48,724 nt of DNA from Bacteroidales bacterium (GTDB lineage: Bacteria; Bacteroidota; Bacteroidia; Bacteroidales; UBA12077): assembly GCA_028282585.1 (NCBI GenBank), contig JANQHR010000027.1, positions 1 through 48,724 on the forward strand, written 5' to 3'. The notes under the pieces were generated by a model, which was not told the DNA's origin, made no database searches, and saw nothing but the letters and a program-made list of their open reading frames with translations. Position numbers and translations under genes: made by a program. This document shows, piece after piece, positions 1 through 25,426 of the stretch (position 1 is its first letter; each line of letters starts with the position of its first letter).

Positions 1-1
1 T

Positions 2-394
2 AATTCAGTGACTGAGGTTGATTTTATAATTGACGGGAATGGAAAAGTCGGTATTGGAACCACCAACCCAAACTATTTACTTTCAGTAAAAGGAACCATT
101 GGTTGTGGAGAAGTAATTGTTGAAAATGTAACGGGTTGGGCCGATTTCGTTTTCGAAGACGATTACAACTTAATGCCATTACAAGAGCTAGATACTTACA
201 TTCAAGAAAACAAACATTTACCGGAAATTCCAACAGCAGAAGAAGTTCAAGAAAACGGTATTTCTATAGGTGAGATGAATGCGAAACTTCTGCAAAAAAT
301 AGAGGAATTAACTCTTTATGTAATTGAACTTCAGAAAAAGAATGAAGAACAAGATGAAATAATAAAACAATTAAAAAATAAAACCTCAGAATAA
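2..394 (+). CDS. 5'-truncated GIGT-repeat fibre-like protein with C-terminal chaperone/coiled-coil module (tail-fibre/peptidase S74-like)
   Basis: Frame is open back to the window edge. Contains GKVGIGTTNP, then WADFVFEDDY..HLPEIPTAEEV..LLQKIEELTLY. Stop overlaps the next start (TAATG 392-396). Confidence 0.8.
   Translation, partial: NSVTEVDFIIDGNGKVGIGTTNPNYLLSVKGTIGCGEVIVENVTGWADFVFEDDYNLMPLQELDTYIQENKHLPEIPTAEEVQENGISIGEMNAKLLQKIEELTLYVIELQKKNEEQDEIIKQLKNKTSE
80..310 (+). repeat. Direct repeat copy 1: fibre C-terminal module (copy 2 at 1456-1686)
   Basis: Ungapped alignment at offset 1376, about 90% identical by eye, differences mostly at third codon positions. Confidence 0.9.
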
Positions 395-1761
395 TGAAAA
401 GAATAGTTCTATTAAGTGTAGTTTTAGCATTTACTTTAAATGTACTTGGACAGGTTACAGACACTGGCAATGAAGTTGGTATAGGTAATACTAACCCTTC
501 TCAAAAGTTAAACGTTCAGGGAGATTTCATAGGATTTCCTGTAGCATCAGGTACTAACCAAACTTATGGCATTTATAGGATTGAGTCGACACAAACAAAT
601 TCCATATTGGATTTTGGCCTAAACGGAGGTTCAGAAGCATCTTCCTGGATTCAGGCTACTAACAGGACAAGTTTAGGAACGAATTATAAACTTTTATTAA
701 ACCCGAATGGAGGAAACGTAGGTATTGGAACTACAAACCCAAATTATGCTTTACTGCATCTAAATAGAAACTCTTTTGGCGAGAGTTCCATGTTAAGTTT
801 TAGTGTAAAAGATGGTACTTATAACCCAAGAATATATTTTAAACACCATACAAGCGAAACAAATCAATACCTCGAATTTACAAGTACATTTAGCACCCAA
901 GTTGGGTATGCAGATTATATTTTTTCTAATGGGAATATGGGTATTGGTACAATTGATCCGAACTATAAACTTGAAATTGTCGGAGATGGAACCAATTTAG
1001 CTTTAAAGAATGAGACTCAATCCATGACCGAGGAAGGTTTATTAAATACCATCAGAGGTTTAGATAAGGATAATAACGTATTATGGTATCTTGGTGATGG
1101 CTCCAGCACTAAACGTGTACTTTTAACGGCAAGAGGAGATGGTACATATCCTTTGGATTTTGAAGTAAATAGCCAAACTCGAATGCGAATAGCTACAAAT
1201 GGTTTTGTTGGAATTGGTACGATTGATCCTAATACTCCAATTCATATTTATAACTCAACAAATAATACAATATTTAAGGGTGAGAGTGGAGATCCTTATG
1301 TTCTAATGAATTTAAAAGATAACACAACTTCAGGGAGTGGATATTTTGTAAGTAGATCAGGTGATAATACATACTTTTATACCGCTGATAATGCTAGAAT
1401 GACTCTTTTAGGTAATGGTAATATTGGAATTGGAACAACTTCTCCAATCTATAAGCTTTCAGTTAAAGGAACCATTGGCTGCGGAGAAGTTATTGTTGAA
1501 AATGTAACGGGTTGGGCCGATTTCGTTTTCGAAGATGATTACCACTTAATGCCGTTACAAGAGCTGGATTCTTACATTCAAGAAAACAAACATTTACCGG
1601 AAATTCCAACAGCAGAAGAAGTTCAAGAAAATGGTATTTCTGTAGGCGAAATGAATGCGAAATTGTTACAAAAGATCGAAGAATTGACATTACATACCAT
1701 TGAACAACAAAAAATAATTGAATCACTTTTAAACAGAGTTGAAAACCTAGAAAATAAATAA
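394..1761 (+). CDS. Secreted GIGT-repeat fibre-like protein with C-terminal chaperone/coiled-coil module
   Basis: Sec signal MKRIVLLSVVLAFTLNVLG-Q. Five GIG[NT]xxP repeats separated by variable spacers. Same C-terminal module as 2..394. Confidence 0.85.
   Translation: MKRIVLLSVVLAFTLNVLGQVTDTGNEVGIGNTNPSQKLNVQGDFIGFPVASGTNQTYGIYRIESTQTNSILDFGLNGGSEASSWIQATNRTSLGTNYKLLLNPNGGNVGIGTTNPNYALLHLNRNSFGESSMLSFSVKDGTYNPRIYFKHHTSETNQYLEFTSTFSTQVGYADYIFSNGNMGIGTIDPNYKLEIVGDGTNLALKNETQSMTEEGLLNTIRGLDKDNNVLWYLGDGSSTKRVLLTARGDGTYPLDFEVNSQTRMRIATNGFVGIGTIDPNTPIHIYNSTNNTIFKGESGDPYVLMNLKDNTTSGSGYFVSRSGDNTYFYTADNARMTLLGNGNIGIGTTSPIYKLSVKGTIGCGEVIVENVTGWADFVFEDDYHLMPLQELDSYIQENKHLPEIPTAEEVQENGISVGEMNAKLLQKIEELTLHTIEQQKIIESLLNRVENLENK
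1456..1686 (+). repeat. Direct repeat copy 2: fibre C-terminal module
   Basis: Matches 80-310. Confidence 0.9.
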
Positions 1762-1766
1762 TAATT

Positions 1767-4700
1767 ATGAGAAAATTAAATAAATTAACAATAATACTCT
1801 TGCTATTAGTGAGTAACTCTTTTTCGCAGGAAAAGGCATTGGAAGTTTATGGTGAAATTCCTGGCGAATGCCAATATTTCATAATTCCGAACGGAACAAA
1901 AAATGTTGGCAGTAAAGCGGGCTTTTTTACAATAAATGTTGTAACAACTGGAATGGCTTGTCGTTGGTTTTGTGGTGATAATGCTAATTGGATAACAACT
2001 TTACCAACCAACGGAACCGATGATGGGATAGTAAGTGTAAGTTATCAAGCAAATCCAAATGATGTTGAGCGAACAGCAGTAATTACCATAATGGGTAATA
2101 CCTTAACCGTTATACAAGCTGCAGCCGGAAGCGACTGCCCTGATTATGAACCCCAAAAAACCATAACAAAAAGTGAACAAATGAGTGATTGGGACTGTGA
2201 TATTCAAAATGGTATATTAGAAGCCAGGGATCGTGTCTCCTTAACAGGTGCATTCAATTATTCCGCAAGTACCGATGATCCATTAACCATTAAAGCAAAT
2301 CCTGATATTATTTTAGATGCAGATTATTTATCCATACCAACAAATGCAACTACCCGCGATGTAAAAACAACAGGAGCAAGTGTTGGAAGTATTCCAGGTA
2401 AAGCTGGGGTTTCACCATTAGGTGCTGCAACATATACTATTCCTATAGAAACACCGCAAGGTATTCAAGGTTTACAGCCTAACATTAGTATTACCTATAA
2501 CAGCCAGGCAGGTAAAACATTGCTAGGGAAAGGTTTTAGCATCGCTGGCCTTTCTTCAATAACAAGAACAGGAAAACATCACTATTTCGACAACGGGCAA
2601 GTAAGTGGTATCGCTTCTTCTGACAACGATAGGTTTGTTTTAGATGGAAGCCGGTTATTAGTTGTTGATGGTAACTATGGTACCTTAAATTCAGAGTATC
2701 GAACAGAACAAAACTCATTTAATAAGATTACATATGTAAATGGAACAAACGGAAAATATTTTAAAGTTGAAACAAAGGATGGAGGTACCATAGAGTACGG
2801 AAATACAAGCGACTCCAGGTTGTCTTTGTTGAATAATACTTATCCTTTAGCCTATAACATAAATAAGATTACCGACAAAAATGGTAATTACATTAAGTTT
2901 ACATATGAACAAGAGGATGGAGTTATAAGAATCAAAAGAATTGACTATACAGGCAATGTGGGTTTTGCACCACAACACTCAATTACATTCTATTATGATA
3001 AGCGTGCCGATGAAAAGACTGGTTATATTATAGGAAAGAAATTTGTTCAAAAAAATATTTTACGAGAAATAGTTGTTAGTACTAACGATAAAATTTACAG
3101 AAAATATAACTTTAAATATGCAAAGGATAATATAAATGAAAGCATATTATCCGAAATTGTATTAAGTAACAAGGCTGGAGAAGAACTCAACTCAACCGTT
3201 TTTGAATGGGGAGATTACAACAATACAATGACAAAAGATGTTGGCACACCTCCAGCTGTAACGGATGTTAGCCGCGATGACATCGCGTGTTTTTCAAATG
3301 ATATGGACTTGGATGGTTTATCTGACATAATATATTTTTATGAAAAGGACGGATACATATATTTAACTTTCAATTACACTAGGTCTGATTATCAGGGGAA
3401 TATTAATTATTGGGTGAGTGAAAGTGAAACTAGTTCTTTGGGGCCTAAGAATAATGGAGAATTAATAAGCGAAATTTTACCTTTCTGGGGAGATTTTTGG
3501 GGGACTGGAATTAACTATATGGTAATTCCCAGGTATAGTTTATATGATGGAAAAGTAGATAAAATAAATTTTGAATTTGCTACTACAGGTGGTTCGGATT
3601 TAGGAAACCGAACAGTTAATATAACTAATGGAGAAATGCCTTTATATGCACGAACAGATTTTGACCTGGATGGTAAATCAGAAATTTTTATTCTTGAAAA
3701 GGAAGATACAGATGGTAATTATAAGGGAACTTTATTAACGTTGGTAAGCGGAGGGGTTTGGTCAGATGATAACTATGCTTTTAATTTATCGGAACAACCA
3801 AGGGCAATGCTAACAGGAGATTACAACAATGATGGATTAACCGATTTAAGAATTGTTACCAAAAGAAAAATATACACTTTTAAAAATGTAAACGGTACAA
3901 TTGATGATACAAGTTATACTGTAAAAGATTTTTCAAATATCCAGTGCAACGAAGCTCGCAATGGAGACTTTAACGGAGATGGAGCATTAGATGTGCTTAT
4001 AGTTGGAGAGAATGATGAAGTTGTAGCTGTGGCTTATGGTAACGGAAATTATGGTGTTACTATTGAGTATTATTCTTCAATTATGGGAATAGTTGATCCT
4101 GACACAGATAGGGATAACAATCAAGACAATGTAATGGTTATGGATTTTAACCACGATGGTTTAAGCGATTTTATTTTATTTGATGGAGTGTTTAAATGGG
4201 ATGGTTCTCATAAAGATTTTAAAGAATTTAATGTTTATTGGTACCAATCAAATGGAAATGGATTTACACTAAAAGAAAAAGCAACTACTACAAATCAAAA
4301 TCATGCCTATAGGAAGTTTTATACTGCAGGCGATTTTAATGGGGATGGGAGGCAAGATTTATTCAACTACGGCTTTGACTGTTTAGAAGAATCTACTTTT
4401 ACAAGCCTTGGCCGGTTTTACTATTCATTTAATACTAATTTCGAAGCTAATAAACTTATATCTATACATAACGGTTTTAATCATAAAACAGAGTTTAAAT
4501 ACCGCCCTTTAAGTTTTGGAGATAATTCATCAGGTACAGATTTTTACACAGTTGGAGGGGCTTACCCTTTCCATCCTTCAAATATATATCAGATTCCATT
4601 TTATGCTGTTGAAAAACTTACAACACCTGATGGTAAAGAAGGTGTAGTTAATACCAACTATTTTTACAAGGGTTTAAGAATTTATAAGCAAGGGAGAGGT

Positions 4701-7700
4701 ATGTTAGGGTTTGATAAAGTTACTACTTACAATGATAAAACTGGAATTTCTGTTATTTCTTCAAGCGAAATAAATGAGACTTACTATGTTCCTAGAACAA
4801 GCAAAACTATTATTAAATTTGGGGAGGACACTTTATCTTCAATTGAGAACACTTATATGCCAAAAAGTTTTGACGAAAACCCAAAACTATTATTTAACTA
4901 TGTTTATCTATCGGAAAGTAAAGATTATCTATTAGGTACATCTGAAAAATCTGAACTTGTAAGAAGTAATCTAAGTGGGGAAATAGGTAGGTATACAAAA
5001 CTATATAAAACCGGAAATAATGTTGATGGTAAAGATTACATATATAATACTTTTACTGATGTCGGGTCATGGTGTTACTCGCGAATATTAAGTTCTACAG
5101 TTACAAAAACTTATAAAACTGAAGATGATGACGTACAAAAATCGACATATAGTTACTATGATAATGGAAATATTAAGTCAAGTACTGCCAATGGTATAAC
5201 AGTAACTATTGATGAATATGACACTTTTGGAAATATAACAAAACAAACAACAAGTGGAGTACCAAATGAAGAATTAACTGTATTGTATTCATATGATCCA
5301 AGTAAACGTTTTGTAAAGTCTGTTACTAATCAGGAATTAGGCCAAACAAGCACCAACGCTTACAATGATTTGGGCCAATTAGTTTCAGAAACAGGCGTTG
5401 ATGGTTTAAAAACTTCTTACTCTTACGATAATTGGGGTAAATTAGTAAAAACAATTCTTCCTAACGGAAAAAAAATTGATTCTGAGCTTAAATGGGAAAC
5501 AGGATCAGATTATACTTATAGTGTAACTGAAAAACCTGAAGGATTTCCTGAAACCAAAACCTATTTCGATTCATTCGGAAGAGATTTAAAGAGCGAAACA
5601 ATTGGTTTTGGAAACAAAAAAATGATCTCAGAGGCTGAATATAACTCAAAAGGCCAGTTGGTGAAAACAATTTCGCCTTATTTCGAAACAGAAGACAATA
5701 CTGGCCATATTACAACTTATGGATATGATGATTATGGCAGGGCAACTTCTGTTACCACGAATGGTTTAACAACTGAAACTATTTATACCATCGGTGAGAA
5801 CCAGGTTGAAGAAAGGTACCCTTCCGGTAAATCAAAAATAGCATATAATAATGCCACTGGTAAAACCTATAAAATTACCAACAATGGAATCGATTTAGAT
5901 TACAACTATTGGAGTAACGGACAGGTTAAGGATATTACTGTTCCAGGAGCAACTGTTGGTTTAAAATACGATATCTATGGTAACCGTGATACACTAACTG
6001 ATCAAAATACCGGAAGCTACGATTTCGATCACGATGTTTATGGTAGGTTAACTCGCAAAGAAAGCCCTATTGGAACGTATACAGCTACATACGAGGATGG
6101 TAGGTTGAAAACCGAAGATGATGGAGAAAATGCGATAACCTATACTTACGTCGAAAATGGGAATGGAATAAATCAAATTGATAAGGTTATTTCTAATGGA
6201 GTTGAATTCCAGGATTTAGATTACGACGAATTTGGAAGAGTTGCAAAACTTTCCGAACAAGTTGGTGATAAAAAAATGGATGCAACGTATAGCTATGATA
6301 TGTATGGCAGGCAAACTGCAATAAATTATCCTGAAGGCTTTGGAATTAAATATGTTTACGATGCTACAACTGGAGATTTGACTGCAATTACTACAAACTC
6401 AGATGAATTAATCTGGCAACTGGAAGACATTAATTCACACAGCCAAATAGTACGTTTTAAAACAGGGAGCACTTCTAATCAGGTAGAAACAGTTTATAGT
6501 TACGATGGGTATAATATTCTTAATGGAATTAACACGGGTAGCACAACTATACAAGATATTACTTATGATTTTGATGAACGAGAGGGAACCTTAAACTTCC
6601 GGGATGGGGTTATAAAGGATGTTAACGAAACATTTACTTACGACAATCTAAACCAATTGGAAGGTGTTAGCAGCGATTTGTCTGATTTAAACTTAACCAT
6701 GGCTTATAATAACGGAGTAACAGGTAGAATGGAAAGTAAGTCGGATGTCGGTACTTTTGCTTACAATAGCTCACGCCCACATGCCATTACAACAATCGAT
6801 CCAGGAACAACGGGTTATTCTCCGGTAAATACTGATACTATTATTTATACCACTTTTGGTAAAGTTAAGCGGTTAGAGCAAGGGAATAATGATATCGAAT
6901 TTACGTACGGGCCAAATCATCAACGTAAAGTAATGGAAGTATATGAAGATGGTGTTTTAAAACGTAAAGTTTATTACTTCGGTAATTACGAGCGTCATGA
7001 AGTGGATGGATTGGTAAGCCATATTTATTACCTGTTTTCACCAAGCGGATTAACAGCTGTTTATAAAAAAGATGAAGGTGCTAACGGCGAAATGTTTTAC
7101 ATTCATAAAGACCACTTAGGCTCCATACATGCTGTTACCAACAAATACCAAAATGTAGTAGCACGATACCATTACACTGTGTGGGGAGTAAAACAAAATC
7201 TTAATGCAAATGGGAGTTCAGTTTCTGCAACAAATGCATTGCCTTGGTTACACCGTGGATATACAGGACATGAGCATTTAACAGAAGTGGGTTACATTAA
7301 CATGAATGGTCGCGTATACGACCCCGATTTGGGAATGTTTATTAGCCCCGATCCACATATTCAAGCACCGGAAGAACCAATTAATTTTAACCGATATGCT
7401 TATGTGTTAAATAATCCATTGATTTACACTGATCCGAGCGGTGAATTCTGGGATCAGATTATTGTAGGAGTAATTGGATTCGGCTATGGTTATGTTTCCC
7501 ATGGAATAGAAACAGATAATTGGGGATGGGATGCTGTAATTTCTGGTGGAATCCATGCTGCGGCATTCTTATATGGATACAACTCAAAAGATTTAGCTGG
7601 AGGAAGTGCGATAGCTGCTCTTGAATATGGAGCAACTTCAGTTGCTACAGATATTATATCATCTCAAATACCTTCTATGACTGTTCCGATTTCAGATGAT

Positions 7701-8426
7701 ATGGCTTTAACAATGTCTGCAGGTATAGGGTATGGATCAGGAAGTTTAGTTGGAGGAGTGAATATGAGTTTATCCTATCATAACAATGGTAATGTATATT
7801 CATTAAATGGTGGTGTGGGCACAAATCATGCTGCTTTTGGTGCTAGTTATTCAAATAGTAATTTTAGTGCATCTTATTATCTTACTAAGTATGGGAATGA
7901 ATATGGCCATTCCCAATGGGTTGGTGGAGTAGCAATCTCTTCAGGTCAGTTTTCTGCAAGATTGGAAAATGACTTTTTAGCTTGGCAAGGTCAAGACAGG
8001 TGGCGTTCCAATGCTGTTGAGTTAGGATTTTGGGGAGGAGATTTTGTTGTAGGTACTAATTTGTATAATAACTATCAGAAAAAAGATAGAGACCCTGTAG
8101 ATGATACAGGTGAGAATTATCACGCAAAAAAAGGATGGTTTGGGTTTGGTAATAAAATTAAAAGAGAGTATGGAACATGGGAAAATGGTCAAACTTATCG
8201 TAGTCCTTTGTGGTTTGGATTCAGAGCAGGTAATAATGTAACAAGAATTGGTTATAGCCATAGTACAATTCAACACGCAACTCAAAATTGGTTTGCTCAT
8301 CAAAGAGGATTTGGTCGATTGGGATTATTTGGATATGCAAATTATTTTAAGGGTTATGATTATTTTGATCAGGGAGGTTATGTGTATTCAGGATATTATA
8401 ATCCTTTTTCCTTATGGGGGAAATAA
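1767..8426 (+). CDS. Rhs/YD-repeat polymorphic toxin: signal peptide, BACON-like domain, SpvB/TcB-like N region, FG-GAP repeats, RHS core, Ntox23-like C-terminal toxin
   Basis: Signal MRKLNKLTIILLLLVSNSFS-Q. SpvB-like GAATYTIPIETPQG..PNISITYNSQ. Several GDFNGDG/DxDxDG repeats and YD repeats. Core RGYTGHEHL..YINMNGRVYDP..NRYAYVLNNPLIYTDPSG. Tip has ENDF..DRWR. Confidence 0.92.
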   Translation: MRKLNKLTIILLLLVSNSFSQEKALEVYGEIPGECQYFIIPNGTKNVGSKAGFFTINVVTTGMACRWFCGDNANWITTLPTNGTDDGIVSVSYQANPNDVERTAVITIMGNTLTVIQAAAGSDCPDYEPQKTITKSEQMSDWDCDIQNGILEARDRVSLTGAFNYSASTDDPLTIKANPDIILDADYLSIPTNATTRDVKTTGASVGSIPGKAGVSPLGAATYTIPIETPQGIQGLQPNISITYNSQAGKTLLGKGFSIAGLSSITRTGKHHYFDNGQVSGIASSDNDRFVLDGSRLLVVDGNYGTLNSEYRTEQNSFNKITYVNGTNGKYFKVETKDGGTIEYGNTSDSRLSLLNNTYPLAYNINKITDKNGNYIKFTYEQEDGVIRIKRIDYTGNVGFAPQHSITFYYDKRADEKTGYIIGKKFVQKNILREIVVSTNDKIYRKYNFKYAKDNINESILSEIVLSNKAGEELNSTVFEWGDYNNTMTKDVGTPPAVTDVSRDDIACFSNDMDLDGLSDIIYFYEKDGYIYLTFNYTRSDYQGNINYWVSESETSSLGPKNNGELISEILPFWGDFWGTGINYMVIPRYSLYDGKVDKINFEFATTGGSDLGNRTVNITNGEMPLYARTDFDLDGKSEIFILEKEDTDGNYKGTLLTLVSGGVWSDDNYAFNLSEQPRAMLTGDYNNDGLTDLRIVTKRKIYTFKNVNGTIDDTSYTVKDFSNIQCNEARNGDFNGDGALDVLIVGENDEVVAVAYGNGNYGVTIEYYSSIMGIVDPDTDRDNNQDNVMVMDFNHDGLSDFILFDGVFKWDGSHKDFKEFNVYWYQSNGNGFTLKEKATTTNQNHAYRKFYTAGDFNGDGRQDLFNYGFDCLEESTFTSLGRFYYSFNTNFEANKLISIHNGFNHKTEFKYRPLSFGDNSSGTDFYTVGGAYPFHPSNIYQIPFYAVEKLTTPDGKEGVVNTNYFYKGLRIYKQGRGMLGFDKVTTYNDKTGISVISSSEINETYYVPRTSKTIIKFGEDTLSSIENTYMPKSFDENPKLLFNYVYLSESKDYLLGTSEKSELVRSNLSGEIGRYTKLYKTGNNVDGKDYIYNTFTDVGSWCYSRILSSTVTKTYKTEDDDVQKSTYSYYDNGNIKSSTANGITVTIDEYDTFGNITKQTTSGVPNEELTVLYSYDPSKRFVKSVTNQELGQTSTNAYNDLGQLVSETGVDGLKTSYSYDNWGKLVKTILPNGKKIDSELKWETGSDYTYSVTEKPEGFPETKTYFDSFGRDLKSETIGFGNKKMISEAEYNSKGQLVKTISPYFETEDNTGHITTYGYDDYGRATSVTTNGLTTETIYTIGENQVEERYPSGKSKIAYNNATGKTYKITNNGIDLDYNYWSNGQVKDITVPGATVGLKYDIYGNRDTLTDQNTGSYDFDHDVYGRLTRKESPIGTYTATYEDGRLKTEDDGENAITYTYVENGNGINQIDKVISNGVEFQDLDYDEFGRVAKLSEQVGDKKMDATYSYDMYGRQTAINYPEGFGIKYVYDATTGDLTAITTNSDELIWQLEDINSHSQIVRFKTGSTSNQVETVYSYDGYNILNGINTGSTTIQDITYDFDEREGTLNFRDGVIKDVNETFTYDNLNQLEGVSSDLSDLNLTMAYNNGVTGRMESKSDVGTFAYNSSRPHAITTIDPGTTGYSPVNTDTIIYTTFGKVKRLEQGNNDIEFTYGPNHQRKVMEVYEDGVLKRKVYYFGNYERHEVDGLVSHIYYLFSPSGLTAVYKKDEGANGEMFYIHKDHLGSIHAVTNKYQNVVARYHYTVWGVKQNLNANGSSVSATNALPWLHRGYTGHEHLTEVGYINMNGRVYDPDLGMFISPDPHIQAPEEPINFNRYAYVLNNPLIYTDPSGEFWDQIIVGVIGFGYGYVSHGIETDNWGWDAVISGGIHAAAFLYGYNSKDLAGGSAIAALEYGATSVATDIISSQIPSMTVPISDDMALTMSAGIGYGSGSLVGGVNMSLSYHNNGNVYSLNGGVGTNHAAFGASYSNSNFSASYYLTKYGNEYGHSQWVGGVAISSGQFSARLENDFLAWQGQDRWRSNAVELGFWGGDFVVGTNLYNNYQKKDRDPVDDTGENYHAKKGWFGFGNKIKREYGTWENGQTYRSPLWFGFRAGNNVTRIGYSHSTIQHATQNWFAHQRGFGRLGLFGYANYFKGYDYFDQGGYVYSGYYNPFSLWGK

Positions 8427-8428
8427 CT

Positions 8429-9088
8429 ATGAAATTATTTAAAGGATTTATTATAATACTGTTCTGTATACTTATTACTAGTTGTAATCTTCTTTTTATG
8501 CCTAGTGAACCTAAAAGTATGCTTAGAAATGGTTATACAAATAAATATACAGGTTTAGATACAATAATTAATATAAATGGTTTGTATTATATTCGTATAC
8601 CTCAAGAAAAAGTTAAAGAAATAACTCATCCTTATGACACAATCTATAATGCTTTTATGTTTCATCCATATGGTTTCTTTGAGATATCTAAAATGGATAT
8701 TATTATGCAAAAAGAATACTTAAAAGGGAAAAAACCTTCATATTTTAAATATGGAGAACATGGGTATTACAAGATAGTAGGAGATACAATCAAAGCAAGA
8801 TATGTTGAACCGCCAGGAGGAATGACATGGTATGCCGGAGAAAAATGGTTTAAGATAATTAATGAAAATACTCTTGAAGTTATCGCTGGTGAAGCAAGAA
8901 GCCTTAACTATATGGATTCAACAAGAAACTATATTTGTAGTTTTAAGGAACTTTCTTTTATGCCTCCTTATAATAAATCATGGTTAATTAGAAAGAAATG
9001 GTTTTGGGAAAATGAAGAAGACTTTAAGCAATGGAAAAAAGAACAAAAAAATATGAATTATGTAAAACCAGCTAGCGCGGATTTGTAA
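8429..9088 (+). CDS. Lipoprotein, probable cognate immunity protein of the Rhs toxin
   Basis: ATG 2 bp after the toxin stop; MKLFKGFIIILFCILITS-C lipobox. Start 8429 preferred to the track's 8414. Confidence 0.75.
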   Translation: MKLFKGFIIILFCILITSCNLLFMPSEPKSMLRNGYTNKYTGLDTIININGLYYIRIPQEKVKEITHPYDTIYNAFMFHPYGFFEISKMDIIMQKEYLKGKKPSYFKYGEHGYYKIVGDTIKARYVEPPGGMTWYAGEKWFKIINENTLEVIAGEARSLNYMDSTRNYICSFKELSFMPPYNKSWLIRKKWFWENEEDFKQWKKEQKNMNYVKPASADL

Positions 9089-9136
9089 TCCGGGCATTTG
9101 AATAAAAGTATGCACGGAAGGCATTTCCGTACCAGC
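9071..9136. repeat. Inverted pair of REP-like palindromes
   Basis: GCTAGCGCGGATTTGTAATCCGGGCAT (9071-9097) and its inverted relative ATGCACGGAAGGCATTTCCGTACCAGC (9110-9136). Each has an internal CGGA..TCCG hairpin. Confidence 0.55.
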
Positions 9137-9173
9137 GCAAAAAAAGAAATAGAAACTAAAAAAATAAAAGAAA

Positions 9174-9650
9174 ATGAAACTAAAAATTATACTAATAGCA
9201 TTTTTAGCCATAGTAAGTTTTAACAGCATGGCACAAACCGTCGAAATCATTTATGATTACGATGCTGCGGGTAACCGCATACAACGAGAGTATAAAGTTA
9301 TACCGGCAGCACCTGAAACTTTTAACGATACAGAAACCGCAAACAGCGAAGAAGCTTTGGAAGGCGAAGGGATTACAGAGCCCGAAGTTTACAACGATTT
9401 GGTAGCCGAAAAACAGTTTAACATTTATCCTAACCCAACACGAGGTAAATTAAAAATAGATATGTTAAATTATAGTTTCGGTACGGAAGGTATTATCCAG
9501 GTATTTGATCTGAATGGTCGCTTGGTGAAACAAGTTACAAAACTTGAAGTTAGCATGGAGCTGGATATTACCAACGAACCTGCCGGTACTTACATTATGG
9601 TTATTGTCGTCGGCAACGAAAAATCGGAATGGAAAATCGCTAAACAGTAA
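9174..9650 (+). CDS. Small T9SS type A sorting-domain protein with a single YD-like repeat
   Basis: Signal peptide (SMA-Q), YDYDAAGNRIQR, acidic linker, CTD IYPNPTRG..VFDLNGRLV..GTYIMVI..KIAKQ. Confidence 0.88.
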   Translation: MKLKIILIAFLAIVSFNSMAQTVEIIYDYDAAGNRIQREYKVIPAAPETFNDTETANSEEALEGEGITEPEVYNDLVAEKQFNIYPNPTRGKLKIDMLNYSFGTEGIIQVFDLNGRLVKQVTKLEVSMELDITNEPAGTYIMVIVVGNEKSEWKIAKQ

Positions 9651-9677
9651 GTTATAAAAACCTTTACACAAAAACTT

Positions 9678-9710
9678 AAGCCTCCCATATTTTAAAATTG
9701 GGAGGTTTTT
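9678..9710 (+). terminator. Intrinsic terminator closing the fibre/Rhs operon
   Basis: Stem AAGCCTCCCA / TGGGAGGTTT running into a T-run. Confidence 0.75.
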
Positions 9711-9813
9711 AATCTTCCATATCTTTTCTCATATTCAAGTCTACTTTGTTATTTTCTTTTTTGTTATCATAAGATTTATTAACTTTAATTTATAACCTTG
9801 TTATGAATAGAAA

Positions 9814-16419: not shown

Positions 16420-16878
16420 CTATGCATTAAATAAGTTTACAAGGTATAGATAGGTTTTACCTCTTATACCCGGATTTATACTTTCCCGATTACCCGCTAT
16501 ATTTAAAGTTTTAATTTTATTTAAAGATATCCACTGAATCACTTTTTTATCAGTGAATTCTTCGCTAATATCTACTATTAAATAAGGTTTCGAAAACTGC
16601 GTACATAAATTCATGGTATCTAATACTCCTCCTTGAGCCTCAGTAGAATCTCTAATTATAAGAGTACCATCCGATTCCAAAACATTCTTTTTTGTTCTAT
16701 CCGTATACTCTTCACTTTCAATTTCTGATACGGGATATCGATAAGGTATAGTTCCTCTTTCGCTTTTCCTGCCTCTTGGGCAAAATCCTCCACATTCAAA
16801 TCCATGATCTAAAGCAAAATCTAAAGCACCTTGATCAACACCCGTTTGACCACCTGAAATAATTTTGATTTTATCCAT
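16420..16878 (-). CDS. Putative molybdenum-carrier / cpYpsA-type SLOG family protein
   Basis: KIISGGQTGVDQGALD, RTKKNVLESDGTL, LNIAGNRES. Confidence 0.85.
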   Translation of the reverse strand: MDKIKIISGGQTGVDQGALDFALDHGFECGGFCPRGRKSERGTIPYRYPVSEIESEEYTDRTKKNVLESDGTLIIRDSTEAQGGVLDTMNLCTQFSKPYLIVDISEEFTDKKVIQWISLNKIKTLNIAGNRESINPGIRGKTYLYLVNLFNA

Positions 16879-17305
16879 TATTGCTTTCTTTTAGTACTTT
16901 GTAAATGCCATATTTTCTGCAATATCTGTAAAACCAACTATATTCAATATCAAATCCCAGATTCTTTTTAACTTTATTTTGCAACTGCTCAATTGTTTTA
17001 ACACTTTTTGCTGATGCCATTCTTTTTATCCTTGTTTTGTATGGATGTAGCTGTGATTTACGTCTTTCAGAGTATTTATATTTAAGTAATCCTTCAATTC
17101 CTTTTTTTAAATAGATTTTAGTCCAGTCAGCAACAGTATCTTCATGGATACCTAATAATTGAGTTATATTAATATTTTTTTGTCCTTCGTTCTTTAATAA
17201 TATACAGTAAACCCTTTTTAGAATATTTTTTTTATTCTGATTTTCCTTTACTAATTGCTTTAATTTAGCTTCTTCCTCTATTGTAAGAATTACTTTATAA
17301 CCCAT
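16871..17305 (-). CDS. Helix-turn-helix protein resembling the IS630 transposase N-terminal DNA-binding region, without DDE domain
   Basis: RVYCILLKNEG..ITQLLGIHEDTVADWTKIYLKKGIEGLL HTH. ATG 17305 preferred to the track start. Overlaps the downstream gene by 8 bp. Confidence 0.65.
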   Translation of the reverse strand: MGYKVILTIEEEAKLKQLVKENQNKKNILKRVYCILLKNEGQKNINITQLLGIHEDTVADWTKIYLKKGIEGLLKYKYSERRKSQLHPYKTRIKRMASAKSVKTIEQLQNKVKKNLGFDIEYSWFYRYCRKYGIYKVLKESNNG

Positions 17306-17500
17306 TGATAATAAATTTGCTACAAAGTACAAAAACGGAACTAAAAAAGCAAGTATACATGAAAGTTTCTAAACACTTTTCATTATTAATTATAATTGAA
17401 TCATCATAACATTATGATCTTAATAATCAATTTTTCTTTAAGATTTAATAGGATTCTTTAAAACCGAATTCAAGTTATAAAAAAAGAAGGAAAATAAAAA

Positions 17501-21007: not shown

Positions 21008-21424
21008 ATGAATGATATTATTGTTTTAACAAAAAGAAGCGTTTTCCCATTAACAAGATTTTATTTTTCTATAGAGCATGAAAGCTATTTTATTCGATCG
21101 GGAGAACTAAAAAAAATAAAGCTTGATGGAGAAGGAGAGTATGAAATAACAGTACATTCTTTTTGGATAAGCAAAAAGACTAAGTTGTTCTTAAAGAATA
21201 TGTCAATACTTAACATAAAACATATTATCCCTGATTTGTATTACTTGGTTGGAATACCAACCGTAGTTATTATGTCTATTTTAGCATTTCTGGGCTTAGT
21301 TAATGTATTACTATTATCTGGAATTGTTTTACTCTATTTATTACCTTTATTATATTTTACCTTTTTAAAATCCAATTATTATTTTAAAATCAATATAGAA
21401 GAAACAATTTGTTTTATAGAGTGA
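21008..21424 (+). CDS. Hypothetical protein with soluble N-domain and two C-terminal TMs, candidate immunity to precursor 3
   Basis: Starts 20 bp after precursor 3; hydrophobic hairpin near the C-terminus. Confidence 0.6.
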   Translation: MNDIIVLTKRSVFPLTRFYFSIEHESYFIRSGELKKIKLDGEGEYEITVHSFWISKKTKLFLKNMSILNIKHIIPDLYYLVGIPTVVIMSILAFLGLVNVLLLSGIVLLYLLPLLYFTFLKSNYYFKINIEETICFIE

Positions 21425-21490
21425 TTATCTAAATAACTACTCTATTTTCTTAATACCTTCAACAATTATAATCTCTATTTTGAGAAAAAT

Positions 21491-21763
21491 ATGATATTAC
21501 AATCAATAAAAGAAAATATCTATGAGAAAATAAATTCATAAATTCAAGCAAAAATTCAAAATATTAATACAAAGCTATTTTTAAGTCTTTTATTGTTACT
21601 TTATGTACTTGTAGGAGTAATACTTAACTGGTATATTATTACCGATGATCATTACTACGGCTCTTTAGGTAATAAGACAGAAATTGTGCTTTCAAATAAC
21701 CTAAAACTTGAGATTAGTCAATCTAGGTTAAAACACTTGCATGAGCAGTTTTGTGTTTATTGA
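21491..21763 (+). pseudogene. Chimeric remnant: 5' part of the 24244 membrane gene fused in frame to the LytTR 3' end
   Basis: 21552-21673 matches 24260-24381 (9 mismatches in 122 bp). 21667-21763 matches the LytTR end. Reads ..IQNINTKLFLSLL..DDHYYGSLGN/KTEIVLSNNLKLEISQSRLKHLHEQFCVY*. In-frame TAA at 21539. Confidence 0.88.
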
Positions 21764-21923
21764 AAAAACCTTAATGCTTATTATAAAAAAACGGGATTTT
21801 ATAAACTCGTTTAGGTATTTTAAAATAATGAATAAAATTTTTGCCAATTTTGAATTGATATTCTCATTTATTAATCAAAATTTTTTAATTATGAAAAAAT
21901 TAGACCTAAGTCAAATGGAAAAA
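21667..21923 (+). repeat. 257-bp direct repeat copy 2
   Basis: Matches 19784-20040. Confidence 0.95.
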
Positions 21924-22067
21924 GTTAATGGTGGTTGGAGTTGGGAAGATTGCCTTTCTGGAGCAGGAAGGGCATTAGTTCATGGAGGCTGGGTTGCAGC
22001 TGCTGCCGGAGGTTGGATAGGTGTAGGTGCATTAGCAGCATTTGGTTGTGTTGTAGCTAATACGTAA
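21891..22067 (+). CDS. Double-glycine-leader peptide precursor 4 (class II/Blp-like bacteriocin, 58 aa)
   Basis: MKKLDLSQMEKVNGG|WSWEDCLSGAGRALVHGGWVAAAAGGWIGVGALAAFGCVVANT; Gly/Ala-rich core. True start ATG 21891. Confidence 0.9.
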   Translation: MKKLDLSQMEKVNGGWSWEDCLSGAGRALVHGGWVAAAAGGWIGVGALAAFGCVVANT

Positions 22068-22080
22068 TTGGCTTTTTCAG

Positions 22081-22117
22081 AAATGAGTATTTATAAATGT
22101 TGTAAATACTCATTTTC
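22081..22117 (+). terminator. Stem-loop after precursor 4 (terminator/attenuator)
   Basis: AAATGAGTATTTA (22081-22093) / TAAATACTCATTT (22103-22115). Confidence 0.6.
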
Positions 22118-22135
22118 TATTAACAATTCTGTTTA

Positions 22136-22885
22136 ATGAAAAATAACTTTAGAATTTCCTTATTATTAATTCAAACTAACCTACTTAGTTTGAAAAGGTA
22201 TAGTACAGGCTCTTTACTTGAGGTTGCATTTAAACGTTATGGATTAAAATATCCAGCAGAATGGATAGGTATTCTATTTGTATTTACTTTTTTTTCCATG
22301 GTTTTCATTGGTGTTTCATTTGAAAAAACGATCACGATAAATAATAAAGAATGGTTAAATATTATAGATATTAATGCATTGTTTTTTTCTATGATTATAA
22401 TATTAGAGTTTCTATTACAGAAACCAGTATTTAATATTTCAAGGATTCAGTTAAAGTTATTTCCAATATCATATAAAAACAGGCTACATATAAAATATTT
22501 GTATGAAATCTTTGATAAAAAAATAGTTGGACTAGTTTTATTTTTTATCATTTTATCAGTATTTATAGTATATAAGAAACAACAATTTGATTTATATTTA
22601 ACCATTTTAACATATACCAGTGTAACAACAACATATTTATTAACATGCTCTTTTATCATTACATTTAGAGCTATCCTTAAGAGAAAAATTAAAAAAAACC
22701 ATAGCTTATTTATACCGATAATCTCAACTCTGATGATTATATGCATTCTTTTTTATATCAAGTATATCAGGATAAATGTAATATCAATAACTCATATTTT
22801 CATATCACTTGCTTTTACTATATCCTTGTGTATAATTTTGTATTTTATCAACTTATTTATTGAAAAAAATTGTAATCATAGGTAA
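22136..22885 (+). CDS. Multi-TM membrane protein, probable ABC permease (immunity-type)
   Basis: About six hydrophobic segments; LKLFPISYKNR..EIFD loop; in operon with an ABC ATPase. Confidence 0.6.
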   Translation: MKNNFRISLLLIQTNLLSLKRYSTGSLLEVAFKRYGLKYPAEWIGILFVFTFFSMVFIGVSFEKTITINNKEWLNIIDINALFFSMIIILEFLLQKPVFNISRIQLKLFPISYKNRLHIKYLYEIFDKKIVGLVLFFIILSVFIVYKKQQFDLYLTILTYTSVTTTYLLTCSFIITFRAILKRKIKKNHSLFIPIISTLMIICILFYIKYIRINVISITHIFISLAFTISLCIILYFINLFIEKNCNHR

Positions 22886-23507
22886 AAAGTCAGTCAATAT
22901 AATTTACTATTCTTGTTTAATGATACCAGTTTACCTAAAATATTATTTTCGTAAGGCTTATTTCTTTCGTTTTACACCTTTTGTAATTCCTGCCATTTAT
23001 TATCATAATATTAAAATAGCATTATTACTTTATATGCTCTTGTTTATTTTATACGAGAATTGTTTTTGCAAACCTTTTAATGAAAAATATTTATGGGATA
23101 ATCGGATGAATATTATTACGGAAGTTAATACAGGAAAATTGTTTACTACAGTTAACTTAATAAATTTATTGTCAATTGCTTTTTGGTTTTACCTATCCTT
23201 AGTTATTAATTATATTTTGAACCACAATATTGCTGATATAGGATATTTAATTATCCAGTTTTTATCTTTATTATTATTCTCAACAATAATAGGGAATTTC
23301 TTGTATTTTATTTTTTCAAAGATTCCTCCATTCTTTGCAAAGAGGATTGTGCGAATATTAATATTTTCCATACCATTAAATATTTCCGTTGCAATCAACT
23401 TTTTACAGTTCTATTTTCAAATTATTTTTCTAACAGTACTTATTTTTGTTTGGTACAAACAAATTAAGTATTTCAATTCTCATTCACATAACACAATCAA
23501 AATATGA
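22860..23507 (+). CDS. Multi-TM membrane protein, probable second ABC permease half
   Basis: Several hydrophobic segments; stop overlaps the ATPase start (ATGA). Start uncertain (TTG 22860 or ATG 22920). Confidence 0.55.
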   Translation: MKKIVIIGKKSVNIIYYSCLMIPVYLKYYFRKAYFFRFTPFVIPAIYYHNIKIALLLYMLLFILYENCFCKPFNEKYLWDNRMNIITEVNTGKLFTTVNLINLLSIAFWFYLSLVINYILNHNIADIGYLIIQFLSLLLFSTIIGNFLYFIFSKIPPFFAKRIVRILIFSIPLNISVAINFLQFYFQIIFLTVLIFVWYKQIKYFNSHSHNTIKI

Positions 23508-24238
23508 TTAGCCTATTAAATATATCCAAGCACTATTCAAAAAACCTTGTTCTTAATGATATTTCATTTGACATTGAAACTGGGAAAGCTACCTGCTTAC
23601 TTGGGAAAAATGGTGCAGGAAAAACTACAACTGTAAACATTATAAGTGGCCTTTTAGAACAAAATGAAGGACATGTTTATATAGACAACCAAGAAATATC
23701 TCAAACTACATATGATTATCGTAGAAAGTTCGGATATGTTTTTGAAGAACATATGTTAATTGACAAGTTAACAGCTAAGGAATACATAACACTGATAGCA
23801 GAAATGTACGATATTCCCAAAAACGAATATGATATTCGAATAAAATCGTTATTAAATTTTTTTGAACTACCAGATGATAATAGTAAATATATCGAAAGTT
23901 ACTCTTTAGGGATGAAAGTTAAAACTTCTTTAGCCGCAGCTATGGTAAATAAGCCAAACTATCTTATTCTTGATGAACCCTTTAACGGACTAGACATAAT
24001 AAGTGTAAACAATTTGCTTAGTTTATTGAAAAATTTCATTAAACAAAATGGAACAATTTTTATTACATCTCATAATCTTGATCTGGTTTCTGATTTATGC
24101 GATACTTTTTACGTATTAGACAAAGGCAAGATAAAGACAAAACTAAATAAACAAGATTATAGCTCTAAGGAGGAACTTAAAAATAAAGTAAAAAACATTT
24201 TAATTAAAGAAAATTCCGTGGAAAATATAAATTGGTAG
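23504..24238 (+). CDS. ABC transporter ATP-binding protein (ABC-2/LanF-like)
   Basis: Walker A GKNGAGKT, signature YSLGM, Walker B YLILDEP, ITSH. Confidence 0.92.
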   Translation: MISLLNISKHYSKNLVLNDISFDIETGKATCLLGKNGAGKTTTVNIISGLLEQNEGHVYIDNQEISQTTYDYRRKFGYVFEEHMLIDKLTAKEYITLIAEMYDIPKNEYDIRIKSLLNFFELPDDNSKYIESYSLGMKVKTSLAAAMVNKPNYLILDEPFNGLDIISVNNLLSLLKNFIKQNGTIFITSHNLDLVSDLCDTFYVLDKGKIKTKLNKQDYSSKEELKNKVKNILIKENSVENINW

Positions 24239-24243
24239 ACTTC

Positions 24244-24891
24244 ATGATTTTAAAAAATGAAATTCAAAACATTAATACAAAGCTATTTTTAAGTCTTTTA
24301 TTGTTACTTTATGTGCTTGTAGGAATAATACTTAATTGGTATATTATTACCGATGATCATTATTACAAATCTTTAGGAAATCAACTAGATGTTGAGCGAA
24401 TACGTCAACTTCTAACCTTTCGGAATAAATGGGATTGGATAGGATTTTTAATTATTCCTCTTTTAATTTTAGTTAAAATATCATTAGTTGCTGTTTGCCT
24501 TGAAGTTGGTAATTTTATTATTGATTTAAAATTGAAATTTAAACAATTATTTAAAATCGCACTATTGGGAGAAGCAATTTTTCTGATTGCAGCACTTACT
24601 AAAATTATATACTTTTTATTATTTCCGAAAAATGTTACGCTTGAATTTATTCAAACCTTTTATCCTTTGTCTTTAATAAACATGGTTGTAATTGAAAAAA
24701 TTCCAGCCTATTTAGTTTATCCTCTACAATTAATTAATGTTTTTGAACTGCTTTATTGGATTATTCTGGCGTATTTAATCAAAATTTATACCAACAGTTC
24801 ATTTGATAAATCGTTTGGTTTTGTAGCTAAAACATATGGGATTGGGCTTTTTACATGGGTTGTGCTGGTTGTTTTTCTTTCAATAAATTAA
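24244..24891 (+). CDS. Multi-TM (about five) membrane protein associated with the peptide export module
   Basis: Hydrophobic segments, FYPLSLIN..YPLQLINVFELLYW; directly upstream of redoxin and C39 transporter. ATG 24244 preferred. Confidence 0.7.
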   Translation: MILKNEIQNINTKLFLSLLLLLYVLVGIILNWYIITDDHYYKSLGNQLDVERIRQLLTFRNKWDWIGFLIIPLLILVKISLVAVCLEVGNFIIDLKLKFKQLFKIALLGEAIFLIAALTKIIYFLLFPKNVTLEFIQTFYPLSLINMVVIEKIPAYLVYPLQLINVFELLYWIILAYLIKIYTNSSFDKSFGFVAKTYGIGLFTWVVLVVFLSIN

Positions 24892-24904
24892 AAAAGTACC
24901 TTGA

Positions 24905-25426
24905 ATGAAAGAAATTATTAAAATAGTTTTTCCTATAATTTTATTTTTAGGGGTTGGGTTTATGTTGTTTAAAACATTTAAAAAAATTGAACAGAAAAAT
25001 ACAATTGCTTTACAAATCAAAAAAATCCCCGATTTTGAGTTTTTAGAAATCCAATCAAATGAAAAATTTTCGAGTAAGTCATTAAAAAAAGATATTCCTG
25101 TACTTTTCGTGTATTTCAATACCGAGTGTGAACACTGTAGATATGAAATAAAACAAATAAGCCACAATATAAACAAATTTGAAAATTGTCAGATAATAAT
25201 GATTTCCATTGAAGAACCGGAAATATTAAAAACATTTACCAAAAAACACAACTTATTAAATAAAAAAAATATAACAATCCTTTATGATAAGGATTTAATG
25301 TTCGAAGAAATATTCGGGAATTGTCCTTTCCCAACCAGTTTTATCTATAATAAAAAAAGAGAGCTGGTAAAAACCTTCAAAGGAGAGGTAAAAATAGAAG
25401 CCTTGCTAAAATACCTGAACGAATAA
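24905..25426 (+). CDS. Membrane-anchored thioredoxin-fold (TlpA/ResA-like) thiol-disulfide oxidoreductase
   Basis: N-terminal TM, FNTECEHC (CxxC), cis-Pro motif FPTSFIY; TAATG-coupled to the transporter. Confidence 0.88.
   Translation: MKEIIKIVFPIILFLGVGFMLFKTFKKIEQKNTIALQIKKIPDFEFLEIQSNEKFSSKSLKKDIPVLFVYFNTECEHCRYEIKQISHNINKFENCQIIMISIEEPEILKTFTKKHNLLNKKNITILYDKDLMFEEIFGNCPFPTSFIYNKKRELVKTFKGEVKIEALLKYLNE

Follow-up and report, generated by a model that had tools for sequence, protein, structure and literature searches.

We analysed a 48,724-nucleotide stretch of DNA from a marine Bacteroidales bacterium (contig JANQHR010000027.1 of assembly GCA_028282585.1; contig C105, positions 1-48724, of a genome, G000, that is 98.35% complete), which we call the window. 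At its start lies a cassette of five genes encoding two fibre-like proteins, a large Rhs toxin, a lipoprotein and a small protein that joins a YD hairpin to a type IX secretion system (T9SS) C-terminal sorting domain (CTD), hereafter the YD-CTD protein (Table 1).

A preliminary description of this DNA had placed five co-directional genes within 2-9710, with tight junctions and a terminator, and had read them as at least two fibres, a 2219-aa SpvB/FG-GAP/Rhs toxin, a lipoprotein and a small T9SS-CTD protein, with export signals on all four complete genes. The open reading frames (ORFs), the junctions as read and the domain matches bore out both the layout, with the genes at 2-9650, and the content, and leaders were present on all four when N-terminal signals were assigned by eye from the translations, being hydrophobic, ending in GQ, SQ or AQ and, in the lipoprotein, accompanied by an ITSC lipobox. 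The two fibre genes overlap in a TAATG read from the sequence at 392-396, the second fibre gene is separated from the Rhs gene by 5 bp (1762-1766) and the Rhs gene from the lipoprotein gene by 2 bp (8427-8428), if the latter begins at ATG 8429, and a spacer of 85 bp precedes the YD-CTD gene. The unit ends at a hairpin (CCTCCCA...TGGGAGG followed by five Ts, about 9683-9715), because the genes from 9814 onward are housekeeping ones (ComEC, TrkA, TrkH, Sua5, transaldolase and similar). On the other side, none of the genome's contigs ends in sequence overlapping the first 400 bases of the window, and the window's upstream DNA is unassembled; the DNA of the fibre C-terminal domain is repeated at 75-89% identity, and assemblies break at such repeated fibre 3' ends.

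Table 1. Features of the Rhs cassette in the window.
Feature	Position	Strand	Basis
Fibre-like gene, 3' part, 130 codons	2..394	+	Contig start falls inside the gene; translation
Tail-fibre-like protein, 455 aa	394..1761	+	ORF and translation
Rhs protein, 2219 aa	1767..8426	+	ORF, translation and Pfam/NCBIfam
Toxin region of Rhs (residues 1894-2219)	7446..8423	+	Pfam Ntox23, AlphaFold2
Lipoprotein, candidate Ntox23 immunity	8429..9088	+	ORF open from 8414; likely start ATG 8429
GC-rich hairpin between lipoprotein and YD-CTD genes	9112..9132		Terminator scan and sequence reading
YD-CTD protein, 158 aa	9174..9650	+	ORF, translation and Pfam/NCBIfam
Terminator-like hairpin with T-run, closing the unit	9683..9719	+	Terminator scan (9699-9719) and sequence reading

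The 2219-aa protein is, judged by its sequence, a Sec-signal fused TcB/TcC-like cocoon with a predicted autoproteolytic Rhs core and an Ntox23 domain at its end. Pfam and NCBIfam place a BACON domain at residues 71-118, SpvB at 218-385 (2.5e-11), FG-GAP at 793-866 (FG-GAP_3, 2.5e-14 in 3 stretches), RHS repeats (RHS_repeat, 4.1e-15), the Rhs-associated core at 1816-1892 (TIGR03696, 59.2 bits against a cut-off of 32.5) and Ntox23 at 1997-2179 (98.3 bits, 8e-28). The core motif, NNPLxYTDPSGE / NNPLIYTDPSGE, is kept in an alignment of 36 homologues, and a Gly-rich helical segment lies between the core (...YTDPSGE) and Ntox23. The C-terminus of the protein is Ntox23, and no CTD family of Pfam or NCBIfam matched it, so that it has no recognisable sorting domain of its own. 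Its Rhs paralogues on two other contigs of the genome, C61 and C23, end in different C-termini without a Pfam family (the last 543 residues in C61). Within residues 1-200 (window 1767-2366), this protein, like the C61 paralogue, has a BACON domain and about 100 further residues ahead of SpvB. Most of 35 aligned homologues have SpvB directly after the leader, which makes the N-terminal module a lineage-specific addition.

By its domain content the Rhs protein falls within the TcdB/TcaC-type class of Rhs polymorphic toxins described by Zhang et al. 2012 (PMC3482391), having in common with these toxins and with the TcB/TcC (BC) part of Tc complexes a signal peptide, SpvB, an integrin-like propeller, an RHS shell, a core protease and a variable C-terminal toxin. 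It differs from Tc complexes in that TcB and TcC are fused in one chain and in its company, a YD-CTD partner and fibres, with no TcA seen: the TcA family VRP1 (PF03538) had no match in the genome, in a search for which the control genomes gave none either, and no TcA-like gene was seen among the large ORFs of the 42 Rhs loci inspected below. Type VI secretion system (T6SS) Rhs effectors, which ride on PAAR/VgrG with Eag or other adaptors, likewise have an Rhs cocoon, an encapsulated toxin, downstream immunity and a small accessory protein coupling effector to machine; here, in contrast, the protein starts with a Sec leader, Pfam and NCBIfam gave no PAAR or VgrG match, TssC/VipB was not found in the genome by a search whose control was positive in E. 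coli, and the proposed machine is the T9SS. A T6SS effector was rejected on the Sec leader and the absence of a TssC match.

A YD-hairpin protein with a T9SS sorting domain beside SpvB-Rhs genes

In the 158-aa protein encoded at the end of the cassette, a signal peptide and a YD hairpin (YDYDAAGNR) are joined through an acidic linker to a type A sorting domain of the T9SS (PF18962 Por_Secre_tail at residues 84-152, 47.7 bits against a cut-off of 27; TIGR04183, 46.8 against 23). Its hairpin begins 4 residues past the predicted cleavage site, and in relatives 1-8 residues past the leader. An alignment with 35 database relatives showed the same succession of a leader, an invariant Y-x-Y-D-A-A-G-N-R hairpin, a low-complexity acidic linker and a CTD, with Y29, D30, A32, G33, N34 and R35 invariant.

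We surveyed the neighbourhood of these genes from both sides. The survey centred on the small gene took one genome per species and gave 70 loci, one of its two scan patterns being the YD motif, which is found inside Rhs genes too. It contained 45 loci with a match to the YD end, most of them running from leader to CTD and four partial (L050, L064, L069, L072), and a gene with SpvB, FG-GAP or RHS domains was present in 42 of these 45, in 33 within 1.5 kb. The Rhs gene lay downstream of the small gene in 36 loci and upstream, as in the window, in 6; the three loci without it were L012 (a contig end), L029 and L038 (an Ntox23 and lipoprotein pair). Loci matching the CTD alone had no Rhs gene (0 of 17).

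In the survey centred on the toxin, the SpvB segment was searched in 401 Bacteroidota genomes and matches with E <=1e-18 were kept, which dropped six weaker rows (four of them proteins of ~3300 aa, the others a 305-aa fragment and a 1189-aa ORF) and left 42 SpvB-Rhs genes in 24 of the 401 genomes; for the 39 loci outside the source genome, six-frame ORFs were scanned with hidden Markov models (HMMs). A YD-bearing small gene adjoins 38 of the 41 testable SpvB-Rhs genes, or 39 counting the doubtful locus L095, L093 having been left out as untestable on its 5.3-kb contig. Longer partners (291-669 aa), found at L083, L086 and L088, keep the hairpin at the N-terminus and the CTD at the C-terminus with a variable spacer between them; the partner at L082 is split across two frames. 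Gene order varies, either the YD-CTD gene followed by Rhs or Rhs followed by immunity and then the YD-CTD gene, with frequent overlaps. In the source genome the gene set recurs at 3 of 3 SpvB-Rhs loci (C105, C61 and C23), all of which have a YD-CTD partner, these being 60-64% identical. The 158-aa protein is therefore a dedicated, near-obligate partner of SpvB-Rhs genes. The preliminary description had called it a T9SS adaptor, which fits its architecture and the presence of T9SS machinery in the genome (SprA, TIGR04189, 2656.6 bits; PorU, NF033707, 1352.9 bits).

Related gene neighbourhoods have been reported. In the part of Steele and Moran 2021 (PMC8125069) that concerns these genes, SpvB/TcdB Rhs genes of Apibacter adjoin genes with T9SS type A sorting domains, and such Rhs proteins are inferred to be associated with the T9SS rather than to be T6SS effectors, with the mechanism left open; that part treats one genus and does not describe the YD hairpin, the phylum-wide near-obligate linkage, a mechanism or the fibres. 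The sections of Jana, Salomon and Bosis 2020 (PMC7073777) on TANFOR toxins describe Sec-signal toxins without a CTD, with CTD proteins enriched nearby, and hypothesise export by the T9SS while posing its mechanism as an open question; the TANFOR toxins of those sections have another N-terminal domain and no Rhs shell, and their neighbours are large SprB/Fn3/PKD proteins and not a minimal hairpin joined to a CTD. How Sec-exported Bacteroidota polymorphic toxins without a sorting domain cross the outer membrane is thus, in these portions of both reports (PMC7073777, PMC8125069), an open question. Within the open-access literature and preprints we found neither the YD hairpin-CTD family nor its near-obligate linkage described, nor a linkage between fibres and Rhs genes. 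From gene content and linkage, we give about an even chance to the reading that the cassette is a T9SS-linked Rhs polymorphic toxin with a trans-acting YD-CTD partner and optional fibres.

Fibre genes at the Rhs cassettes

The 455-aa fibre begins with a signal peptide, continues in five GxGIGT beta-helix repeats and closes with a C-terminal domain (C-domain, ~340-455) that is conserved and ends in a coiled coil. GN(V/I)GIGT motifs recur in the translations of the fibres, and the truncated fibre at 2-394 (fibre C-domain HMM, 4.5e-60) shares 80% identity with the fibre encoded after it over the C-domain. No Pfam family matches either fibre, and PHROG tail-fibre families match the 455-aa protein at 3.5e-18. 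A profile of 40 homologues searched against the PDB with hmmsearch found the beta-helix regions of Bdellovibrio mosaic adhesive trimer (MAT) fibres of solved structure: Bd2133 (8ond_A, 9e-24), 8oml_A (7.3e-15) and 8ojn_C (5.9e-11). The AlphaFold2 (AF2) monomer of the fibre was poor (predicted local distance difference test, pLDDT, 65), as expected when a single chain of a trimer is modelled, and Foldseek with this monomer again returned 8ond at the top (8ond_A, 2.8e-8), with 8onc and 8oml, and also found T4 gp34.

The MAT fibres of Bdellovibrio bacteriovorus are surface-displayed adhesins in the pertinent part of Caulton et al. 2024 (PMC10769870; PDB 8ond, 8oml, 8ojn). Both kinds of fibre are host-encoded and have phage-tail-fibre-like beta-helix repeats (profile E 9e-24 to 7e-15); in the fibres studied here, in contrast, the conserved module is C-terminal (helical/coiled-coil) and the variable part N-terminal, no S74 domain was detected, and the linkage is to toxin genes and not to predation. 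The genome holds 15 copies of the conserved C-domain, many at contig ends, and among these paralogues the C-terminal 120 residues are 53-82% identical and the N-terminal repeat region is variable. The family as a whole has more than 4338 homologues among the candidates scored, mostly from Bacteroidota.

The C-terminal chaperone module to which the preliminary description had referred was not recovered as Peptidase_S74 (PF13884): Pfam gave no match in the C-domain even at E 10, and hhalign against a true S74 protein of the genome aligned 18 coiled-coil columns with 7% probability. One fibre homologue in the databases is named 'Peptidase S74 domain-containing' by its source, and the ESM Atlas placed the C-domain among unnamed Bacteroidota clusters, and a weak lead (0.87) pointed to a cluster with PTL_trimer in 13% of its members. 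Elsewhere in the genome (C161:30037-32846, locus L121), a gene for a 363-aa fibre paralogue lies 2 bp ahead of one whose 571-aa product combines a true Peptidase_S74 chaperone domain with a T9SS sorting domain, and some fibre-type proteins of this genome are therefore likely to be direct T9SS cargo.

With the C-domain HMM, a fibre gene was found at 15 of the 42 SpvB-Rhs loci, in 6 of the 24 genomes and five families, always co-directional and closely spaced, in the order fibre-Rhs, fibre-YD-CTD-Rhs or, twice, after the Rhs gene. In these six genomes, 19 of 44 full fibre copies adjoin an Rhs or YD-CTD gene, against ~0.3 expected from the genome fraction that lies no more than 3 kb from such loci. 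The fibre count is inflated by duplication of paralogues, and the pattern nonetheless recurs in different families and gene orders. The survey centred on the small gene gave a fibre in 10 of 45 loci and in 0 of 17 controls. The preliminary description had made its proposal depend on fibre genes being enriched beside Rhs genes, as these counts show them to be, and on the upstream DNA not being a prophage tail module. Upstream of the fibres in 10 related loci and at C61 the DNA is housekeeping (Mrp/ParA ATPase, methyltransferases, Wzx-like flippases, M90 peptidase, a transposase and an outer-membrane protein), with no phage tail proteins there. The association of fibre, Rhs and YD-CTD genes is thus conserved and non-random, with YD-CTD genes at 38-39 of 41 loci and fibres at 15 of 42, and the fibres are an accessory and not a core component, as about two thirds of the loci lack them. 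A prophage tail module was rejected on the housekeeping flanks of the related loci, and chance adjacency on the enrichment of fibre and YD-CTD genes beside Rhs.

The linkage suggests a modular targeting device for Rhs toxins, similar in logic to tailocin fibres or TcA. If the cassette is a T9SS-linked toxin, the fibres would be an optional module for targeting or adhesion, bringing the surface that bears the toxin to the target cell. Weighing against the overall reading, 27 of the 42 Rhs loci have no fibre and 25 of the 44 fibre genes lie away from any SpvB-Rhs gene, so the fibres are not obligatory and must also have other roles. A somewhat less than even chance goes to the fibres being independent surface adhesins, co-transcribed or co-located with the toxin and without a physical link to the Rhs or YD-CTD protein, which would agree with these same counts, with the very large size of the family and with a C-domain common to all paralogues, suggestive of a generic rather than an Rhs-specific anchor. 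Against this, the enrichment exceeds 50-fold, the order and tight spacing recur in five families, and an Rhs locus of another type, at C159, also starts with a fibre gene.

We consider it very improbable that the neighbourhood is a by-product of recombination at repeats (Rhs hot spots and fibre 3' ends) or a degraded prophage or tailocin without functional coupling. The repetition of fibre C-domain DNA that breaks the assembly and a 39-codon remnant upstream of the C23 Rhs gene are what such a history would leave, but the flanks of the 10 related loci and of C61 contain no phage genes, different families keep the order and orientation, and conservation of the YD hairpin extends to the protein.

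Further observations concern loci with fibre sequences. At C23 (10100-10213), the 39-codon remnant, of a fibre C-domain, lies just upstream of the Rhs gene and a full fibre follows the YD-CTD gene at the contig end, an arrangement that suggests tandem cassettes or a past rearrangement. In two genomes of one genus (L111:34-2237 and L118:17-1968), the order fibre-YD-CTD-Rhs directly follows polysaccharide-biosynthesis genes (Wzx-like flippase, aminotransferase), a position that may be a preferred insertion site. A fourth toxin locus of the genome (C159:1-9702; L120 covers 1-6700) begins with a fibre cut by the contig start, followed by a 1050-aa secreted protein with an SpvB-like start, a T9SS-CTD protein of 700 aa that lacks a YD hairpin, a DUF6443 protein of 1216 aa in which an Rhs-core motif is accompanied by a C-terminal extension, and small ORFs. 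The arrangement resembles a TcB/TcC-type system that has been split and has a CTD neighbour of its own.

The Ntox23 region and its candidate immunity protein

Residues 1894-2219 have 299 representative clusters, in which the region stands at the ends of Rhs proteins of ~2000 aa or forms short modules. AF2 modelled it from a 38-sequence alignment with pLDDT 85.6 and a predicted template modelling score (pTM) of 0.78, as three hydrophobic helices followed by twelve long antiparallel strands. The strands have a dyad hydrophobic alternation, and Gly, Tyr, Asn and Ser abound in the region, which terminates in ...FSLWGK. An exhaustive VIA-align search with this model returned 17 chains at Z >=8, of which the ten best (Z 11.1-10.0) were all outer-membrane barrels: the best was the KdgM porin 4pr7_A (Z 11.1, root-mean-square deviation 3.4, 139 residues aligned), and the other top barrels included VhGalP, a COG4313 channel, the autotransporters BrkA, EstA, AIDA-I and NalP (Z ~10), FapF and NanC, with LpxR next at Z 8.9. 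The Ntox23 region is thus predicted to be a 12-stranded outer-membrane-type beta-barrel. The small 12-stranded barrels (KdgM/NanC porins, autotransporter translocators and LpxR) resemble it in predicted fold (Z 11.1 to 8.9 over 139-169 residues), and it differs from them in sequence (5-10% identity), in its position at the C-terminus of a toxin in an Rhs shell and in its invariant polar residues.

LpxR uses an Asn-Asp pair and a His. In the Ntox23 region the invariant polar residues are N175/D176, D184, R187, Q280/N281 and H285 (region numbering); in the predicted barrel they suggest a lined pore or a barrel enzyme. They correspond to the signature 'ND, DxxR, H' given for Ntox23 in the relevant part of Zhang et al. 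2012 (PMC3482391), where the family is restricted to Bacteroidetes, all-beta and exported by the type II secretion system or TcdB/TcaC, with no immunity protein listed. An immunity candidate is, in contrast to that part of the survey, identified here. We found no fold of or immunity for Ntox23 described in the open-access literature and preprints.

The lipoprotein encoded directly after the toxin had no match in Pfam, NCBIfam or PHROG, and the ESM Atlas gave unnamed lipoprotein clusters only. Among 109 fetched loci its homologues occur at exactly three (L035, L038 and L096), each directly 3' of an Ntox23 copy; these copies are the three closest to ours, each at least 37% identical, and none of the three weaker Ntox23-like copies in the 109 loci scanned is followed by a lipoprotein homologue. 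Such co-variation is the pattern expected of a cognate immunity protein, for which the lipoprotein is a candidate by its genomic distribution, and its leader points to an envelope location, in agreement with an envelope-acting toxin. Together with the predicted barrel, this candidate would be a first functional handle on a family without known activity or immunity.

At C61 (50631-52157, locus L122), the Rhs gene is directly followed by the YD-CTD gene, with no same-strand ORF of at least 60 aa to serve as immunity, and ~900 bp of apparently non-coding DNA follow. Two ORFs lie downstream at C23, neither with a Pfam family.

A possible route of export and its alternatives

The CTD of a T9SS substrate must be C-terminal, and the C-terminus of an Rhs protein is the encapsulated, cleaved toxin, so the Rhs protein would be unable to carry a C-terminal T9SS signal. 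The YD-CTD protein would provide the secretion tag in trans: its hairpin would add as a strand to the beta-strip of the Rhs protein and so dock there, in the way that TcC and TcB join, and its CTD would bring the complex to the SprA translocon, where PorU processing would leave the shell tethered to the surface or released. Outside the shell, the toxin would fold in a diderm target as an outer-membrane-type barrel, acting either as a pore or as an LpxR/OMPLA-like barrel enzyme, and the lipoprotein would block it in sister cells. In a bolder form, which we regard as doubtful but worth stating, whole Rhs cocoons would piggy-back through the T9SS by way of a hairpin and CTD adaptor that completes or extends the beta-strip, with fibre trimers, encoded at the operon's head, aiming the toxin-bearing surface at target cells and an unfolded barrel as the payload that inserts in the target envelope.

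The synteny of the YD-CTD and Rhs genes would fit equally well with a YD-CTD protein that is secreted alone by the T9SS as a surface tether or receptor, its hairpin capturing an Rhs protein that has left the cell by another way (vesicles, lysis or another exporter). Anchoring that follows PorU cleavage is common among type A CTD proteins, the acidic linker is spacer-like, and the size of the cocoon speaks against co-transport. We hold this to be unlikely, as the cassette encodes no other exporter and as both proteins have Sec leaders and would first meet in the periplasm.

The preliminary description had gone further in another direction and proposed that fibres, cocoon and adaptor assemble in the periplasm into a soluble, fibre-targeted and contact-independent particle released via the T9SS. 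The operonic linkage of all three genes is conserved in 15 loci and all have Sec leaders, as such a particle would need; the fibres are optional, however, nothing indicates release over anchoring, a fibre joined to a cocoon is larger still than the cocoon alone, and no TcA-like channel turned up in the VRP1 search, with its equally matchless control genomes. We therefore judge this particle to be improbable.

Beyond the fibre counts given above, several points weigh against a T9SS-linked toxin with a partner in trans. What speaks for it is synteny and architecture. An Rhs cocoon, going by Tc and SprA structures, is large for folded passage through the T9SS pore. Two of the 41 testable Rhs loci (L087 and L089) have no YD-CTD gene within ~10 kb, and at L084, L085 and L091 the YD-bearing neighbour has no CTD recognised by Pfam or by our own HMM. 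The fibres have no CTD, and their own route across the outer membrane has no explanation in this scheme. SprA is present in 312 of the 401 genomes, among them all 28 that have any SpvB match, and none of the 89 SprA-negative genomes has such a match, a co-occurrence that lends weak support because 87 of the 89 belong to one family. The Ntox23 barrel is a prediction for which Foldseek gave weak matches only, all of them membrane barrels and the best TamA at E 7.8e-3, and the C61 paralogue has no recognisable immunity gene.

A near-obligate partner reduced to a hairpin and a CTD nevertheless offers a concrete, genetically testable hypothesis for toxin export. If export in trans holds, it would add adaptor-mediated cargo loading to T9SS biology, the YD-CTD protein being the first CTD adaptor to act in trans, and the T9SS would take a direct part in killing between bacteria.

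Two other groups of genes in the window deserve mention. At 21008-27594, four ORFs without a Pfam family, an ABC ATPase, a thioredoxin-like AhpC/TSA protein and a 722-aa Peptidase_C39-ABC exporter form a cluster that resembles a bacteriocin or peptide export locus. On the minus strand, at 16420-17332, a gene of the circularly permuted YpsA SLOG family overlaps by 8 bp a small gene with multiple helix-turn-helix matches.

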